Shown piece after piece: positions 55,619 to 62,742 of a DNA stretch of 64,000 nucleotides (position 1 is the first letter of the stretch; every line of letters starts with the position of its first letter). This DNA is from Shigella phage Ag3. A model generated the notes under the pieces. That model did no database searches and was not told where the DNA came from. It saw nothing but the letters and a program-made list of their open reading frames with translations. Made by a program: the position numbers and the translations under genes. The stretch lies in sequence record FJ373894; one strand, 5' to 3'.

Positions 55619-56304
55619 TGCTGTCGCTCTACCTGATCACGAATCTCGTCAATCATAAATTCTATATCGGTGTCACTTCAGAACCGGATAGGCGGTTGGC
55701 TGAGCATAAGTGTGGTCAGGGGAGCATTGCATTACAACGAGCGTTCAAGAAATATGGTGAAGACCAGTTCACGTTTGAAGTTCTGTTCCGAGGGAAGGAA
55801 TCAGTTATCCTTGAGATAGAGTCTGAACTGGTCTGTCAGGAGATCCTTGACTCTGGGTGGTGCTACAATATGGTCGTCGGTGGTGGGAAGCCTCCATTGG
55901 CCACGCCTGATTCATCCGCAAAGAGTGCTGCAACCCGCAAACGTTTGATCGCTGAGGGTAAGATCAAGCCACCTCCCCGCATATCGGCTGAGTCACAAAG
56001 AAGGGGTGGTGAAACCAGAAGGAAACTGATATCCGAGGGAGTGATAAAGAAGCCATTACCTCCCTCTCCAGAAGCCCAGAGGCGAGCAGGTGAAACAAGG
56101 AAACAGTTGCATGCTCTTGGCCTGATAGACATTGGTCCTGGCCGCGATGAAACGATTTACAAATGGCAGCACAAAGATGGTCGCATTGTTGAGTTAAGAA
56201 GATGCGATATGGAACTTCAATATGGCCTCCCTTCTGGTAATATAACGAATCTCTTGAAAGGTAGGGCTAAAACATGTCTCGGTTGGAGAATAATGAATGG
56301 CTAA
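55618..56304 (+). CDS. GIY-YIG homing endonuclease (Seg/I-TevI-like)
   Basis: LYLITNLVNHKFYIGVTS...RRLAEH matches GIY-YIG; Arg-rich C-terminal repeats. Confidence 0.8.
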   Translation: MLSLYLITNLVNHKFYIGVTSEPDRRLAEHKCGQGSIALQRAFKKYGEDQFTFEVLFRGKESVILEIESELVCQEILDSGWCYNMVVGGGKPPLATPDSSAKSAATRKRLIAEGKIKPPPRISAESQRRGGETRRKLISEGVIKKPLPPSPEAQRRAGETRKQLHALGLIDIGPGRDETIYKWQHKDGRIVELRRCDMELQYGLPSGNITNLLKGRAKTCLGWRIMNG

Positions 56305-57214
56305 AATAATTGTAGTGAAGGGAACAAGTGGCGTGGGCAAGGGTACGAGAGTGGTCCAGTTCATCGAATGGCTCCGTACGAAGCTGGAGCCTACCGAACT
56401 CACCTACACCATTGGTGACAAGACGCGCCCGTTTGGCCTGAAATTCGAAGAGCTGAAGTTAATCTTCGTCGGCCAGTACACTGTGTCCAACAAATCTGGC
56501 CTGGCCTCCTGGACTTCCATGGATGCTATTCATGCTACCACAGGCTCGGGTGATATCGCTCGTGATCTGGTCAAAGGCTGGCTGGCCCAGGGTTACACTC
56601 TGGTGTGCGAGGGCGAACCTCTGATGCTGTCGGATAAATGGCGTCCTGAATGGATGTTCAAGAACTATCCGATTGAATCACTGTCACTGCTGTACTTTGC
56701 ATACCCTGACCGCTATCAGTACGATGCCCGCATCCGTGGTCGCTCTGGTAAAGAAGCAGGGGACTCCGGCTGGTCGCGCAACGAATCTTACTCCAAGGAG
56801 TTTGAGAAGTCGAAGGCCGAAATGCTGGCGCTGGGCTTCACTGTGGCTGTTGATGATTACAGCGGACAGGATATCCTGTATAAATCACCGGATGCCAACA
56901 CCCAGGAGTTCCTGACCAGGCAGCAGTCGGAGTTGGCGGTACTGCCGTTCGACGCCCCGCTTTGGGTGGTGGGTAATGCGATTTGTCATCAGATACGCTC
57001 TGAACTGCGCGATGTTGACATGCACACCAAAGACTTCTACGCCTACTGCGAAACCAATCCGATGACCCGTGAGGTCGGTGGCCGGGATCCTTTGGCGCAC
57101 AGAGTCCCTGAGAAGCCGCAGAAGGCATCCAAAACTAAAACCAAGGCGAGCGCCCAGCCAGAAGCACCGAAGGCGGCGTCGCGCTCTCTCCTTGACCTGA
57201 TGAAGAAGGGGTGA
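56297..57214 (+). CDS. P-loop kinase (candidate DNA/nucleotide kinase)
   Basis: Walker A VVKGTSGVGKGT; 305 aa; overlaps endonuclease stop. Confidence 0.6.
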   Translation: MAKIIVVKGTSGVGKGTRVVQFIEWLRTKLEPTELTYTIGDKTRPFGLKFEELKLIFVGQYTVSNKSGLASWTSMDAIHATTGSGDIARDLVKGWLAQGYTLVCEGEPLMLSDKWRPEWMFKNYPIESLSLLYFAYPDRYQYDARIRGRSGKEAGDSGWSRNESYSKEFEKSKAEMLALGFTVAVDDYSGQDILYKSPDANTQEFLTRQQSELAVLPFDAPLWVVGNAICHQIRSELRDVDMHTKDFYAYCETNPMTREVGGRDPLAHRVPEKPQKASKTKTKASAQPEAPKAASRSLLDLMKKG

Positions 57215-57414
57215 TCATGAAACGGTTGTCTAATTATCTGTTATTCGTCGGTCTGGTTATGGCAGCCGTTTCAATGTGCGCTGCCCTAGCCTATCATTTC
57301 ACCCCTCTGGGCTTAACAACCTCAGAGAAGTTGAACGTGACTGTGATGTACTGTATTGGCGCGGTGATGTCTATCGGCGCTGCTGGTTACAAAATATTCA
57401 AGGAACCAAAATGA
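57211..57414 (+). CDS. small membrane protein (67 aa)
   Basis: ORF track; hydrophobic. Confidence 0.4.
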   Translation: MIMKRLSNYLLFVGLVMAAVSMCAALAYHFTPLGLTTSEKLNVTVMYCIGAVMSIGAAGYKIFKEPK

Positions 57415-57791
57415 AAATTCAAATCCCTCGCGATGCTGTGGCTGTCGCAATTGACTACACCGGAAACGCCAAGCACATTACTGCCGTGCGCCTGATTCCT
57501 GAAAAGAACTGCGTGATCCCTCAGTTCCAGCTGAACGCCAACCCGTCGTCCAAAGACTTCGGTCAGTGGCTGCAGGCTGCTCCGTTCCGTACCCAGACGA
57601 ATGCCCAGATGTTCATCTCGGGTAAGACCCACACTGCAGCCCGTCTGTGGTTCGTGACCGCTGACCGTCGCTTTGTCGATATGTGGGAGCGCCCGATGGG
57701 GTTCGTGAAACCAGAAGACATTCAGCTGGCTCCTGAGCCTGAAGTTGTTGCTCCTGCCGAGGAAGCGAAAGATGAAGATCAGGTCGGTTGA
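57411..57791 (+). CDS. hypothetical protein (126 aa)
   Basis: ATG overlaps upstream stop (ATGA); AAGGAA RBS; ORF track gives 57276..57791. Confidence 0.5.
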   Translation: MKIQIPRDAVAVAIDYTGNAKHITAVRLIPEKNCVIPQFQLNANPSSKDFGQWLQAAPFRTQTNAQMFISGKTHTAARLWFVTADRRFVDMWERPMGFVKPEDIQLAPEPEVVAPAEEAKDEDQVG

Positions 57792-57957
57792 TTTTATCTT
57801 CATGATGCTGATGTTCGTTATCTTTACGGTTTCACTCGTCGGTGTCATGGTCACAGAAGGGGTTCCACAACGCCCCTTCCTGGTGATTTGTCCTATATCG
57901 ATCACCACTTTCTTCTATCTGGCGTTCCGTGTTGAACTGGGGACCAAACTCAAATGA
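57772..57957 (+). CDS. small membrane protein
   Basis: ORF track 57745..57957; ATG at 57772 after GGAAG. Confidence 0.35.
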   Translation: MKIRSVDFIFMMLMFVIFTVSLVGVMVTEGVPQRPFLVICPISITTFFYLAFRVELGTKLK

Positions 57958-59180
57958 CCCATCTATCTAAAATGCCGACGGGCTACGCGCCCCCGGCTGA
58001 ATGGAAGTACCCGATTGACCTGGCTGTTGATTATCGTAAGCCTGAGAATCGCATGTACCTGCTCAAGGCTTGGGTGGAGGCGCTGTCCTACACCGAAGAG
58101 CACAACCAGCAGATGCGTCTGATGGATTATGCGATCGAAGTCACTGAAGGTATCAGCCTCGAACAGAAAGTCGAGCGCAAGATCTGGATGGCATTCCTTT
58201 GGGGTTGTTGCTACAACGCCATCGGTCCATGGACGATCTACAGTGAGTTCCCTGTGCCACCACAGTCCAAAGAAGAGATGCAGCGCTTCTCTGATTGGTA
58301 CAACCTGAACTTTGATCGCATGCGCTTCGATACCGACTGTCGCTACCGCAAGTCGAAGATGATTCCATGTGTTCAGTCCTATATTGACTGGCTGGCTGGC
58401 CGTACTCAATATGACGCTTTCCGTGAGATGTTGGTGTGCATCGATAAAGCAGAACAATTCACTCAGCTGTGGGACACGGCGATGTCCTGGAAATACTTCG
58501 GTCGCCTCAGTGCCTGGAACTTCCTAGAAGCCCTGAACATGGTCTTCGGGGACGAATACACCATTGACGTCCCTGGCTTCATGCTGCGTGACCGTGATGG
58601 CAGTGAGTCCAACCGTAATGGCGCGGCGTTCTTGTCCAACCGTGATGATTGGGTGACCAAGCATGGGAAGAAAAAGATCAATGGCTGTCCTATCACTGAT
58701 GAAGAGTGTGACATCCTTGAGGCCGACCTTGAACAGGCGTTCAAGGAATGCGTGGCTGAGTTCGGGCATCTGACGTTCATCAATCGCCTGAACTTTGAAA
58801 CCTCCGGCGCATGCTGGCTGAAGAAGTTCTTCCGTGAAAAGAACACCCGTTACATTGGGTGGGATGCCGAGCGTACCTGGGATGAGATCGACTACATGGA
58901 ACGCATCTGGCCGGAGTACTCCTGTGCAGCGCTCTGGGAAGCCCGTTCACTCTGGCTACCAGATACCCTGTTATGCGAAAAGGCACCTCCAGGGCACGTT
59001 CCAGGCGTTCAGAAGTGGAAGATGCCTGTGTTCTTTGAGACTGGCGTTCCTCTGCACATCTGGCATCTGCAAAAGGGTACGCGCTGGGAGCCTGACCAGG
59101 TGTATCGAGAATTGGGTAAACCGAAGATTGATAAACCGAAGTCCAACAGCGTCAACCTCATGGCACTCTTGAAACGCTGA
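57954..59180 (+). CDS. hypothetical protein (408 aa)
   Basis: ORF track; coupled to neighbours. Confidence 0.55.
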   Translation: MTHLSKMPTGYAPPAEWKYPIDLAVDYRKPENRMYLLKAWVEALSYTEEHNQQMRLMDYAIEVTEGISLEQKVERKIWMAFLWGCCYNAIGPWTIYSEFPVPPQSKEEMQRFSDWYNLNFDRMRFDTDCRYRKSKMIPCVQSYIDWLAGRTQYDAFREMLVCIDKAEQFTQLWDTAMSWKYFGRLSAWNFLEALNMVFGDEYTIDVPGFMLRDRDGSESNRNGAAFLSNRDDWVTKHGKKKINGCPITDEECDILEADLEQAFKECVAEFGHLTFINRLNFETSGACWLKKFFREKNTRYIGWDAERTWDEIDYMERIWPEYSCAALWEARSLWLPDTLLCEKAPPGHVPGVQKWKMPVFFETGVPLHIWHLQKGTRWEPDQVYRELGKPKIDKPKSNSVNLMALLKR

Positions 59181-59216: not shown

Positions 59217-59384
59217 ATGTTACAAGATCTGTTGGTCTACGCACTTCCGGGTGTGGTTGTTGGATTCATCGCAGGTGCTCTGGTCTTCCGCAAACACGCG
59301 CAAGACGGTGAAGTGATTGTTCAGAAGGGTAAAGACATCCTGGAACAAATCGAAGCCAAACTGGACGAGCTGAAGAAAAAGTAA
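59217..59384 (+). CDS. small membrane protein (55 aa)
   Basis: Manually found; GTGAGGA RBS; MLQDLLVYALPGVVVGFIAGALVF. Confidence 0.4.
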   Translation: MLQDLLVYALPGVVVGFIAGALVFRKHAQDGEVIVQKGKDILEQIEAKLDELKKK

Positions 59385-59400
59385 TCTGATTGCGATTGCG

Positions 59401-59412
59401 TTCTTCAATAAA
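59401..59412 (+). promoter_or_regulatory. conserved TTCTTCAATAAA motif
   Basis: Also at 62321..62332; reverse orientation at 6527..6538 and 50183..50194. Confidence 0.35.
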
Positions 59413-59450
59413 GGGGAATGGGTTAATATTAGCCCGTTCCCCTTTCTTTT
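59413..59450 (+). terminator. rho-independent terminator
   Basis: GGGGAATGGG...CCCGTTCCCC 10-bp stem then TTTCTTTTT. Confidence 0.65.
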
Positions 59451-59466
59451 TGCAAGGAAATACATC

Positions 59467-59679
59467 ATGGCAATGAAACGAATTGAAGATATGTCCCTAC
59501 TGGATATGGAAGCGACTTTTGGTGATTACTTTGAGTCCACTCCGAAACAAAAAGACCCTCTGGTTGGCCGTCTGGTGGTTTCTGAAGCGTTCGCACAGAA
59601 AGTTCGCGAAGGTCTTCCGCCTGAATATGGGCGCTTCCGTAATGGCGCTTCCGTTATCGTCATGGGTGAATCTAAATGA
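59467..59679 (+). CDS. hypothetical protein (70 aa)
   Basis: AAGGAAATACATC RBS. Confidence 0.45.
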   Translation: MAMKRIEDMSLLDMEATFGDYFESTPKQKDPLVGRLVVSEAFAQKVREGLPPEYGRFRNGASVIVMGESK

Positions 59680-60062
59680 CACAGTCCGAATACAAACAGT
59701 ACCTGTACGATCTGTTCATGAAAGAAACGGATGGTACACTCCACCCTAAGAAAGCCACTATCGTCGTGCTGCATTCACAAGGCGCCCTGTCATTCTCCTA
59801 TCTTTTCAAAGAATTGGATCTGATGGGCATTGAATATAAAAAGCACATTACGCCAGAACGCACTCTGAAGCGCGCAATCGCTCACTGCGTCCATTCAGTG
59901 GCAACTGTTATGTTCCGCCATCACATCACATTTGATGAAGCGCTGGACCCACAGTACCATGAAGAGCGTTGGGATCTGTTGTTAAAGAACGGTGCCAAGC
60001 CTGAGCACAAAGATCAACTCCTTGGGATGACCAAGGCGCAACTCGTGGATGGTGTGTTATGA
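59676..60062 (+). CDS. hypothetical protein (128 aa)
   Basis: ORF track; start overlaps upstream stop. Confidence 0.5.
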   Translation: MTQSEYKQYLYDLFMKETDGTLHPKKATIVVLHSQGALSFSYLFKELDLMGIEYKKHITPERTLKRAIAHCVHSVATVMFRHHITFDEALDPQYHEERWDLLLKNGAKPEHKDQLLGMTKAQLVDGVL

Positions 60063-61171
60063 TCTATCTCCTGTTTGGTGTGCCATTGATACTGGCCATC
60101 CTGTTTGTGGTCTACCACCGCAAGACCCATGAGCCGAAAGAGACTCTGATTGCGACGGCGATTGTGGTGGTGCTGTCCTGTCTGATTCAGGTCGGGGCTT
60201 ATGCTGCGTTCTCCCTCGGCAGTTCAGGGGACGTTGAGATCCTGAACGGATACGTCACTGGCAAGGAGCGCAATAAGGTGAGCTGCGAGCACTCGTATCA
60301 GTGCAACTGCTACTACACCACATCATGCTCCGGTTCCGGTAGCAGCAAGTCCTGTACCCGTACTCGCCATTGCAGCACCTGCTATGAGCATTCGTATGAC
60401 GTGGACTGGGATGTGCTGACGACTGTTGGTAATCTGACGATTGACCGCATTGACCGCCGTGGTCTTGGCCAGCCGCCGCGCTGGGCGCAGGTTCAGATTG
60501 GTGAGCCAGCCGCCCGTGAGCACTCCTACATGAACTATGTGCTGGGCAACAAGGACTCTCTGTTCTCCCGCTCAGACCAGCAGTTTGCTGAGCGCTTCAA
60601 AGACAAGATTCCCAAGTACCCTGAGGTCTATGACTACTATCGTGTCACTCGTGTCCTGAACGTGTCCGGCCTGGCTTTGCCAACCACATACTGGAACGAC
60701 TACCTGAATGATGTTCTGAAGAAGCTGGGCGCGGCCAAGCAGGTGAACATCGTCTGGGTTGTGACATCCGGTCAGCCAGTTGAATATTTCCAGGGCTTGG
60801 TCTATGCATGGGATGGCGGTAAAAAGAACGACGTTATCGTCGTGACCGACATCAGCAAAGACCTGAAGATCAATTGGGGTAAGAGCACTTCGTTCGCTGA
60901 TGGTATGCACAACCGTGAACTTCACTCCCGCAACGGTATGGACCTGACTGGGCATGATATGGGCATCGGCGTCATGACAGACGTTGTCGCCAACATCACT
61001 AAAGGCTACAACCGCGTTGAGATGAAGGAAATGGAGTACCTGAAGTGGCGGGAACTCAAGACCTGGGAAGTTGTGGTTGTTGTTCTGCTGGGCTGCTTGC
61101 CATTCACCGCAATTTTCATATTGCAGCGAATGGAGTACAATGGTGGCCGTCGTTATCCGTTTAATTTTTAA
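60059..61171 (+). CDS. Cys-rich membrane protein (370 aa)
   Basis: N- and C-terminal hydrophobic segments; CEHSYQCNCYYTTSCSGSGSSKSCTRTRHCSTC cluster. Confidence 0.55.
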   Translation: MIYLLFGVPLILAILFVVYHRKTHEPKETLIATAIVVVLSCLIQVGAYAAFSLGSSGDVEILNGYVTGKERNKVSCEHSYQCNCYYTTSCSGSGSSKSCTRTRHCSTCYEHSYDVDWDVLTTVGNLTIDRIDRRGLGQPPRWAQVQIGEPAAREHSYMNYVLGNKDSLFSRSDQQFAERFKDKIPKYPEVYDYYRVTRVLNVSGLALPTTYWNDYLNDVLKKLGAAKQVNIVWVVTSGQPVEYFQGLVYAWDGGKKNDVIVVTDISKDLKINWGKSTSFADGMHNRELHSRNGMDLTGHDMGIGVMTDVVANITKGYNRVEMKEMEYLKWRELKTWEVVVVVLLGCLPFTAIFILQRMEYNGGRRYPFNF

Positions 61172-61189
61172 TCAAAAGAGGAAGTAAGA

Positions 61190-61759
61190 ATGTCTCAATC
61201 TAAGAGTATTGCAACAGGTTGGATCGTTGGTTTGGCTTTGCTGGGCATGGTGATTGTCTGCATCGGTACAGTCATCAGCTACTTCAACGACTTCAACCGC
61301 ACCGAACAGCAGGTCAAGAAGTTCAACAAAGACTCCGAGAACTACCTGAGCAACTACACGCTCAAAGTTCAGGAGACGGCGCAGATTCCTGACATGTACA
61401 AAGACGGCCTGAAGGAAGTGATCAAAGGTACGTTCGAAGGGCGTTATGGCGCTGATGGTTCCAAGGCGGTCATGCAGTGGATCCAGGAGCAGAACATTCA
61501 GTTCGATTCCAGCCTGTACAAAGAGATCCAGGTGGTGATCAGTTCTGGGCGTGATGAATTCCGCATCAGCCAGACCAAGAAGCTGGATATCTGCGCAATG
61601 TACGAAACCAAGCTGGCTCAGTTCCCTGGTTCGTTGATCGCTGGCATGTTTGGCTACCCGCGCATCGACCTTGACAAGACCTGCCAGGTGGTGAGCGATA
61701 CCCGTACCCAGGCCGCGTTCGACGCTGGGGTTCAGAAACCGATCAACTTCAAAGGCTGA
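61190..61759 (+). CDS. LemA-family protein
   Basis: N-terminal TM helix; C-terminal FPGSLIAGMFGY...PINF resembles LemA FPNNIVAGMFGF...KVNF. Confidence 0.55.
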   Translation: MSQSKSIATGWIVGLALLGMVIVCIGTVISYFNDFNRTEQQVKKFNKDSENYLSNYTLKVQETAQIPDMYKDGLKEVIKGTFEGRYGADGSKAVMQWIQEQNIQFDSSLYKEIQVVISSGRDEFRISQTKKLDICAMYETKLAQFPGSLIAGMFGYPRIDLDKTCQVVSDTRTQAAFDAGVQKPINFKG

Positions 61760-61891
61760 TATCATGTCAGAACGTGATAAAGAAATCGTCAAGCACGCCA
61801 ACACGCTGGCAAAGGAGCTTGGCATTGAAATTGAAGTCAAGAACATGGATGACGTTCTGACTTTCTTAAACAAATGTTTGGGGTACGAATA

Positions 61892-62367: not shown

Positions 62368-62742
62368 ATGGACAAGAACATGACAGACAAGCCAAGAAAG
62401 ATTGCGATTGTTGGAGCCGGACTGGGCTCTCGGTTGATCAAAGTTCTACTGGAAGAGAAGCTACCAGGAGTTGAGGTTGTGCACATCACTCCCGACGATA
62501 TTCCGAAGCGTCGGAGTGAGCCTGGTGAGCGTATGATCATCTGTGACGAGCTACAACAGATGCCGGACACCAAGGCTCTGCTTGTCAAGCTGAAACAACG
62601 AGACACGGAGATGTCTGCTGAATGTGATATGCGGGAGTTCTATGCCGACCGCCGCTATCAAGAACCCACACGCCTGCGTGGAGCCGCTGCTCACAAACGT
62701 CAGGCCACTAAAATGAAGAACAAACGCCGGAGCAAACGCTGA
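62368..62742 (+). CDS. hypothetical basic protein (124 aa)
   Basis: ORF track; follows terminator. Confidence 0.5.
   Translation: MDKNMTDKPRKIAIVGAGLGSRLIKVLLEEKLPGVEVVHITPDDIPKRRSEPGERMIICDELQQMPDTKALLVKLKQRDTEMSAECDMREFYADRRYQEPTRLRGAAAHKRQATKMKNKRRSKR

Follow-up and report, generated by a model that had tools for sequence, protein, structure and literature searches.

The window analysed here, a stretch of 64,000 nucleotides from one strand of Shigella phage Ag3 (sequence record FJ373894), contains two adjacent genes, here called A and B, whose products are predicted membrane proteins and which together are most probably a distant viral version of the bacterial LemA-TPM gene pair (Table 1). 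An earlier reading made from the letters alone, without database searches (hereafter the sequence-only reading), had pointed to open reading frames (ORFs) of 370 and 189 residues at this place, and the coordinates, the transmembrane (TM) segments, the cysteine cluster of A and the C-terminal motif of B that it described were all confirmed. Both are real genes and not chance ORFs, since A matched phrog_2087 (E 8.6e-164) and B matched phrog_1383 (E 3.8e-87) in PHROG, and hundreds of homologues were found. A and B share a reading frame and are separated by one stop codon and six further codons. A 233-residue ORF on the minus strand (61172-61873), which overlaps B, was rejected as an antisense shadow. 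Searched as single proteins against Pfam, NCBIfam and PADLOC, neither A nor B gave a match over threshold.

B has the architecture of a LemA protein, that is, an N-terminal TM segment followed by a helical domain of about 150 residues with a long first helix. A hydrophobicity scan found a single segment at about residues 4-35, and the AlphaFold2 (AF2) model (predicted local distance difference test score, pLDDT, 82.9) was all-helical, with helices at residues 5-63, 68-82, 87-100 and 108-143. Near its C-terminus, at residues 145-157 (nucleotides 61622-61660), B carries FPGSLIAGMFGYP, which aligns with the FPxxIxAxxFGF motif of LemA and, in Thermotoga TM0961, with FPGVIFAKMFGF. The B family pointed in the same direction: LemA was its most frequent Pfam match (9 of 51 members at E<=1, best E 0.0016), and hmmsearch with the 51-member profile against PDB returned the LemA structure 2etd_A as the top match (E 0.0051), covering nearly the whole soluble domain of a construct that lacks the TM segment. 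When the B family was aligned by hhalign with 30 bona fide Pfam LemA proteins, the match reached 96.6% (E 4.9e-10, 146 columns, TM segment included). The weak matches of B to DUF5775, Spore_III_AF, DUF948 and LeoBC were confined to the TM segment and stalk and were taken as noise. On profiles, architecture and gene context, rather than structure, we place B with high probability in the LemA superfamily, as a divergent member.

For A, a Kyte-Doolittle scan gave hydrophobic stretches at about residues 1-22, 27-55 and 333-358, and the AF2 model (pLDDT 89.6; predicted template modelling score, pTM, 0.78) showed a TM hairpin, a beta-rich domain with the cysteine cluster, an alpha/beta domain and a C-terminal TM segment. 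The alpha/beta domain consists of a four-stranded beta sheet with four flanking helices, the fold of TPM (PF04536), which is treated as the defining feature of that family (bioRxiv 10.1101/2024.10.28.620569), and it retains the motifs KQVNIvvV and W.GGKKNDV. TPM_phosphatase was also the most frequent Pfam match within the A family, with weak matches in 13 of 50 members (best E 1.8e-4). The A sequence itself had no TPM match in Pfam, and neither the single sequence nor the family profile had a significant match in Pfam, NCBIfam or the PDB sequences; the profile's PDB match to Jagged-2 (E 2.6) was discarded as noise. TPM and DUF2207 had been put forward by the sequence-only reading as candidate families for the partner of B. 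The fold of A speaks for the first of these, albeit with no Pfam match, whereas DUF2207 appeared neither among the Pfam matches of A nor among the 25 families most often matched by the 50 members (53 families in all). One member of the A family showed a marginal match to Phage_holin_3_2 (E 0.074).

The beta-rich domain of A had no match to a known domain in the searches made. Its seven cysteines lie at residues 76, 82, 84, 90, 99, 105 and 108 (nucleotides 60284-60382), and two histidines, His78 and His111, are near-invariant in the family. Most members keep this odd number of ectodomain cysteines, and Cys76, Cys82 and Cys108 stand outside the co-varying pairs described below. Together with His78 and His111, these three residues could form a metal site or take part in an intermolecular disulfide.

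The pairing of the two genes was close to universal. Among 82 A loci (80 from IMG/VR and two GenBank records), B lay directly downstream of A on the same strand in 81, the sole exception being a contig that ends about 90 nucleotides after A. A search of 185,579 species genomes yielded 29 loci only, mostly on contigs of metagenome-assembled genomes (MAGs), and B adjoined A in 23 of them. No third gene was conserved with the pair, as no other neighbour family was common to more than two of 28 lineages, defined by A identity of at least 55%. One metagenome sequence, P0370 (L122:1012-2673), encodes a natural in-frame A-B fusion of 553 residues on a phage-like contig of 9.5 kb with no ambiguous bases. 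In the window, where A and B share a frame and are one stop apart, a single stop-codon change would give a fusion of the same kind.

The sequence-only reading had stated that LemA normally pairs with a membrane partner in bacteria, and this proved correct at the loci checked. Bacterial lemA (PF04011) was directly followed by a gene of 233-266 residues in all seven distinct loci; four of these partner genes are recorded as TPM in Pfam, and another is about 98% identical to one of the four. The phages thus carry a module of this kind with its two genes in the reverse order. The order B then A, as in bacteria, was found at two loci, L093 and Bacillus phage G (L123), in which gp142 is B and gp144 is A. 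A LemA-like protein with an adjacent TPM partner is thus what the phages carry, given the fold of A and the 81 of 82 adjacency, and the claim of a two-gene membrane module stood. Chance is an unlikely explanation, because two independent weak signals, one LemA-like and one TPM-like, converge on a pairing that bacteria have. At the lemA locus of Thermincola ferriacetica (P0313; L120:2501-5573), the lemA-TPM pair is followed by genes for NfeD and the flotillin FloA, which links the cellular module to membrane-microdomain proteins.

Several results weigh against this identification. B fell under the Pfam gathering threshold for LemA (PF04011), scoring 13.8 bits against a cutoff of 26.2 (E 0.054) over residues 125-158 only. 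When the TM segment was removed, the hhalign match between the B family and LemA dropped to 52.7% (E 1.4e-4, 123 columns), in the same register, with controls at 0.3% for the reversed profile and 0.6% for an unrelated one, a signal that is still positive, though moderate. An hhalign comparison of A with eight bacterial LemA-partner TPM proteins gave 7.7%, which is not significant. It was in register, pairing KQVNIvvV with TAQVvVVTV and W.GGKKNDV with WGIGqKekNNGV, with a TM segment after both. A also lacks IEVGYGLEG..PDG, the most conserved motif of the bacterial partners and invariant in all eight; the phage segment aligned to it reads I.W..S.SF..G..N, and the W-G-x-G-K...N-x-V loop is kept. 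The A-B fusion, finally, is known from a single metagenome contig. The LemA assignment made in the sequence-only reading survives as remote homology, carried by hhalign, 2ETD and the commonest Pfam match, but not as membership by the Pfam threshold. With these points counted, we regard it as highly probable that the module pairs a protein of TPM fold with a LemA-like one and that both face the periplasm.

The predicted topology draws on charge, on the fusion and on cysteine co-variation. The loop between TM1 and TM2 of A has a family mean of 1.96 lysines plus arginines per about 10 residues, and the C-terminal tail a mean net charge of +1.6; in the B family, the N-terminal tail has a mean net charge of +1.25 and the 20 residues after the TM segment one of -1.08. 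The charge bias of both proteins agrees with the positive-inside rule. In the fusion P0370, the C-terminal TM segment of A is followed by a linker of about 25 residues and then by the TM segment of B, an arrangement that puts the large domains of A and B on the same side of the membrane. Cys135 and Cys165 of B occurred together in 28 sequences and were both missing in 23, never singly, and such perfect co-variation is characteristic of a disulfide. Cysteines of A are likewise lost in pairs, Cys84 with Cys105 in nine sequences and Cys90 with Cys99 in two. In Bacillus phage G, which carries the Gram-positive version, gp142 has no cysteine, Cys135 and Cys165 being absent, and gp144 has two. From these sequence statistics we infer that the ectodomain of A and the LemA-like domain of B lie in the oxidising periplasm.

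Table 1. Genes A and B of the Shigella phage Ag3 window, their predicted parts, and the features upstream of them
Feature	Position	Strand	Description
Gene A	60059-61171	+	370 residues, three TM segments, inner-membrane protein, phrog_2087
TM hairpin of A	60062-60223	+	TM1 residues 2-20, TM2 residues 26-55; short positive loop, predicted cytoplasmic
Cys-rich beta domain of A	60227-60532	+	Residues 57-158; predicted periplasmic and disulfide-bonded
TPM-fold domain of A	60653-61006	+	Residues about 199-316 (inferred boundaries); four beta strands, four helices
C-terminal TM anchor of A	61061-61141	+	Residues 335-361, followed by a short basic tail, predicted cytoplasmic
A-B junction	61172-61189	+	Six in-frame codons after the TAA stop of A, with a GAGGA ribosome-binding site for B
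Gene B	61190-61759	+	189 residues, type-II membrane protein, one N-terminal TM segment, LemA-like helical bundle, phrog_1383
TM helix of B	61217-61285	+	Residues about 10-32, N-in/C-out
LemA-like helical domain of B	61286-61669	+	Residues 33-160, contains FPGSLIAGMFGYP
Cys135 and Cys165 of B	61592-61684	+	Predicted periplasmic disulfide, from co-variation
HMUD2 5-hmdU DNA kinase	56297-57214		Upstream of the A-B pair; E 1e-159
Amino-acid:DNA transferase ADDT	57954-59180		Upstream of the A-B pair; E 2e-60
Strong intrinsic-terminator-like hairpin	59410-59445	+	16-bp stem with 7 GC pairs, then a T run
Two small genes	59467-60062	+	70 and 128 residues (the latter phrog_5047); same unit as A-B

The pair is spread widely among large virulent phages. 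With tblastn, A was found in 485 of 50,697 phage records. The carriers included Ackermannviridae infecting Salmonella, Escherichia, Klebsiella, Dickeya and Serratia; T4-like phages of Aeromonas and Cronobacter; T5-like phages of Vibrio, Pectobacterium, Pantoea and Aeromonas; ICP1; jumbo phages, among them PBECO4, Ea35-70 and Serratia phages; Acinetobacter myoviruses; and Sinorhizobium phage phiM12. The B profile matched 1,423 clusters at 50% identity (E<=1e-3) among 1.84 billion representatives. By DNA similarity the block was present in 234 phage records, mostly of Ackermannviridae genera, and identity tracked taxonomy, from 83% in Kuttervirus through 69% in Klebsiella phages and 56% in a Serratia phage to 47% in T4-like Aeromonas phages. 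Across virus families identity remained at 35-47%, with many invariant residues, which suggests a conserved target or activity.

Some loci departed from this pattern. Full-length A with its Cys-rich domain but with no B-like neighbour occurred at four loci, three on GC-rich Myxococcota-like MAG contigs (L110, L113 and L114) and one in a Rickettsiales-like MAG (L105). The neighbours of these solo genes are cellular-looking (a TetR regulator, a Ser/Thr kinase, trmB and a racemase), and the solo homologues may be cellular relatives, or the phage gene may derive from them. The A-B pair was also present on contigs of two isolate genomes, Achromobacter anxifer (L092, 487 kb) and Variovorax sp. WDL1 (L098, 282 kb), surrounded mostly by orphan ORFs, with a UvsX/RecA-like gene upstream of the pair in the former; these loci may belong to prophages, to jumbo phages or to the cell.

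Annotation of these genes is inconsistent. In ICP1 and one T5-like phage, A and B are labelled hypothetical or, wrongly, major capsid protein, and the labels of B homologues range over 'virion structural protein', 'major capsid protein', 'Lipoprotein', 'LemA' and 'hypothetical' (for example L084:5959-6546 of DU_PP_V, NC_049509, and gp142 of phage G). The structural labels are almost certainly wrong. At the level of annotation, B has already been called LemA in a few records and in UniRef; we found no prior description of A as a TPM-type protein, of the obligate pairing, of how widely the pair is distributed or of the periplasmic disulfide topology.

The surroundings of the pair in Ag3 are those of a ViI-like phage. 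The window is 96-98% identical in nucleotide sequence to the Agtrevirus-like phages P46FS4, MK-13 and SKML-39, and by this similarity the genome is that of an Agtrevirus-like, ViI-like member of the Ackermannviridae. The genes for a 5-hydroxymethyldeoxyuridine (5-hmdU) DNA kinase and for ADDT indicate that the phage DNA carries hypermodified thymidines, like that of ViI-like phages. Three small ORFs with strongly hydrophobic segments (57211-57414, 57745-57957 and 59217-59384; 67, 70 and 55 residues) are interleaved with the hypermodification genes, making the stretch 5' of the pair rich in small membrane proteins. The terminator-like hairpin marks the boundary between this hypermodification block and the A-B transcription unit, as the upstream edge of the latter. 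A closely packed series of genes follows the hairpin. Of the two small ones upstream of A, the 128-residue one overlaps the start of A with its stop (ATGA). Neither was found adjoining the pair outside Ag3's own phage lineage, and they are therefore placed outside the conserved cassette. A promoter scan gave matches no more frequent than in shuffled sequence. In related records the pair lies on the same strand between DNA polymerase, nucleotide-metabolism and hypermodification genes on one side and rIIA/rIIB on the other. Downstream of the pair, a 124-residue ORF (62368-62742) has an N-terminal IAIVGAGLGS, a GxGxxG-like motif; its homologue in Salmonella phage SeF6a is labelled 'NADH dehydrogenase-like protein', and it seems too short for a complete Rossmann-fold enzyme.

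As to function, our preferred reading follows from the roles proposed for the cellular relatives of the two proteins. TPM domains have been proposed to act not as phosphatases but as chaperone-like helpers of membrane-complex assembly, and they accompany PspA as conserved partners, in operons some of which also encode band-7 proteins (PMC11237479; bioRxiv 10.1101/2025.01.14.632903). TPM proteins are accessory factors in the repair and maturation of photosystem II (bioRxiv 10.1101/2024.10.28.620569). Within the LemA family, MamQ is required for formation of the magnetosome membrane (PMC3905215), and a mycobacterial LemA-like domain has been proposed as a membrane scaffold (bioRxiv 10.64898/2026.07.15.738315). 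Induction of lemA and of a TPM gene has been reported in a Flavobacterium mutant under membrane stress (PMC13236525).

On this basis, A would be anchored in the inner membrane of the host by its N-terminal TM hairpin and its C-terminal TM segment, and would display the disulfide-bonded Cys-rich beta domain and the TPM-fold domain in the periplasm, while B, as a type-II membrane protein, would direct its LemA-like helical bundle towards the same compartment. The two proteins would be co-produced from one early or middle transcription unit, a timing suggested by the gene context, and would act as a heteromeric inner-membrane complex, which we propose by analogy. It might stabilise or remodel the cytoplasmic membrane of the host, or chaperone a membrane complex exposed to the periplasm, and the envelope would thereby be kept functional over the long infection cycle of a large virulent phage. 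To membrane maintenance or remodelling, or the assembly of a membrane complex, as the functional class of the pair, we give somewhat less than an even chance. Two points count against it: there is no settled function for cellular LemA or TPM either (PMC3905215; bioRxiv 10.1101/2024.10.28.620569), and our literature search found no experiment on either phage family. The same search found no functional study of LemA and no phenotype for a bacterial LemA-TPM module.

A broader version of this proposal is conceivable, though we think it distinctly doubtful. A-B may be an ancient auxiliary module, shared by many families of large virulent phages, that works from the periplasm to take over maintenance of the host inner membrane. 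It might, for instance, hold a conserved envelope or energy-transducing complex together once the host has been shut off, or oppose abortive-infection effectors that target the membrane. If so, A-B would be the first genetically tractable model of how a LemA-TPM pair acts in any organism, and the Cys-rich beta domain, with its seventh, unpaired cysteine and with His78 and His111, would be a new periplasmic ligand- or metal-binding domain recognising a conserved host target.

The main rival, possible but in our judgement unlikely, is superinfection exclusion or protection from lysis from without, in which a periplasm-facing A/B complex would block the genome entry of later phages or the damage they cause to the cell wall. 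Superinfection exclusion and envelope remodelling had both been suggested in the sequence-only reading. The predicted location of the two proteins, in the inner membrane and turned towards the periplasm, is the one at which T4 Imm and Sp act; their genes lie in the early/middle region beside rIIA/rIIB; and they were found only in virulent phages. Known exclusion proteins, however, are small, lineage-specific and fast-evolving, whereas A and B are long and retain their cross-family identity and invariant residues in myoviruses, T5-like siphoviruses and jumbo phages, which have quite different injection machines. Conservation of this degree is more readily expected of proteins with a conserved host target than of exclusion proteins, which typically evolve fast. 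Nor did the pair have a significant match in PADLOC, where A matched nothing and B only LeoBC (E 1.5e-4, 19 bits, TM and stalk region), and the solo A homologues stand in cellular-looking contexts.

A role in the timing of lysis, with B as a holin-, antiholin- or i-spanin-like protein and A as its periplasmic regulator, is very unlikely. The gross topology of B does resemble that of the T4 holin T and of i-spanins, and in Ackermannviridae the pair lies near rIIA/rIIB. But B had no Pfam match to a holin or spanin (no dedicated spanin search was made), and it is predicted to be a compact LemA-like helical bundle and not a long coiled coil. No ORF of at least 40 residues is embedded in B in another plus-strand frame, and a 42-residue ORF downstream of B has no N-terminus resembling a signal peptide or lipobox, so that no o-spanin candidate was seen. 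Outside Ackermannviridae the neighbours of the pair are unrelated to lysis, and the conservation of A and B is far above what is usual for lysis proteins. The readings of B as a spanin, as holin T or as a virion protein were accordingly rejected, on the lack of a spanin or holin match, the LemA-like bundle, and the TM segment with its predicted disulfide.

Less probable still is a periplasmic phosphatase or nucleotidase, in which the TPM domain of A would supply phosphate for phage DNA synthesis and B would serve as anchor or regulator. Large virulent phages do need much phosphate. Phosphatase or ATPase/ADPase activity has been reported for some TPM domains (cited in PMC11237479), but the activity is disputed even for canonical members (bioRxiv 10.1101/2025.01.14.632903; bioRxiv 10.1101/2024.10.28.620569). 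The absence from A of the motif most conserved in bacterial TPM partners speaks against it, and the obligatory LemA-like partner and the Cys-rich domain would be left unexplained.

The sequence-only reading had taken the two genes for an acquired module. The corresponding possibility, that a host lemA-TPM operon was recently captured and is an accessory 'moron' of the Ag3 phage, does have a real relationship of fold and family to the bacterial pair in its favour, but it is slightly less probable again than a phosphatase. GC content is 0.53 in A and 0.52 in B against 0.50 in the window, with no anomaly; the block recurs in the 234 phage records with identity declining with taxonomy; and the A-then-B cassette is common to T4-like, T5-like, jumbo, ICP1 and other phages. 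The phage proteins form families of their own, far from cellular LemA and TPM and too distant to pass Pfam thresholds, with the gene order reversed and an extra domain in A. The species genomes yielded few loci, mostly on MAG contigs, as given above, and no high-identity bacterial lemA-TPM operon with the A-then-B architecture was found. 'Acquired' was accordingly dropped from the description of the module.

Least probable of all is that B is a virion structural or capsid protein, a label attached to phrog_1383 ('virion structural protein'), repeated in RefSeq and given as 'major capsid protein' in two records: B has an N-terminal TM helix, a predicted periplasmic disulfide and LemA homology, and is encoded in a replication/nucleotide-metabolism region, always beside a three-TM partner, whereas tailed-phage virions assemble in the cytoplasm, and, as no source for the label came up in our literature search, copying between annotations seems to lie behind it.

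Both LemA and TPM proteins are very widespread bacterial membrane proteins, and the TPM studies consulted report no consensus on function. Hundreds of sequenced large virulent phages carry a divergent viral version in which the two are strictly paired, and among them are such tractable carriers as ICP1, CBA120 and ViI relatives, T5-like phages and T4-like phages. Knock-outs in these phages could yield a phenotype for the LemA-TPM module, and the pairing and the predicted periplasmic topology can be put to the test. Nearly all copies are at present labelled 'hypothetical' or mislabelled 'virion structural' or 'major capsid', and the identification made here corrects this propagated error.

Among known systems, A-B is most like the bacterial LemA-TPM operon (PF04011 then PF04536; for example Thermotoga TM0961, the source of 2ETD, and its neighbour). 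Both consist of two tightly adjacent membrane genes, one for a single-TM helical bundle of about 150 residues ending in FPxxIxAxxFGF and the other for a TPM-fold domain followed by a TM anchor. They differ in that the TPM-like gene comes first in phages of Gram-negative bacteria and that both phage proteins fall under Pfam thresholds. Compared with the bacterial TPM partners, A adds the N-terminal TM hairpin and the Cys-rich beta domain and lacks their Gly-rich C-terminal tail. The TPM proteins AtTLP18.3, Psb32, LMTP1/TLP26 and YdjH (of PspA operons) have neither a Cys-rich beta domain nor a described LemA-like partner; the hosts of these phages lack the clients of those proteins, photosystem II among them, and sequence similarity to A is negligible. 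T4 Imm and Sp are phage-encoded early proteins of the inner membrane or periplasm. No homology between them and A or B was detected, and they are far shorter, are confined to particular lineages and form no conserved pair, so that the analogy is one of location only. MamQ differs from B in that the study consulted (PMC3905215) describes no TPM partner for it, but by description it resembles B as a single-TM protein of LemA type whose C-terminal domain faces a lumen equivalent to the periplasm and which is linked to remodelling of the inner membrane (PMC3905215; bioRxiv 10.64898/2026.07.15.738315).

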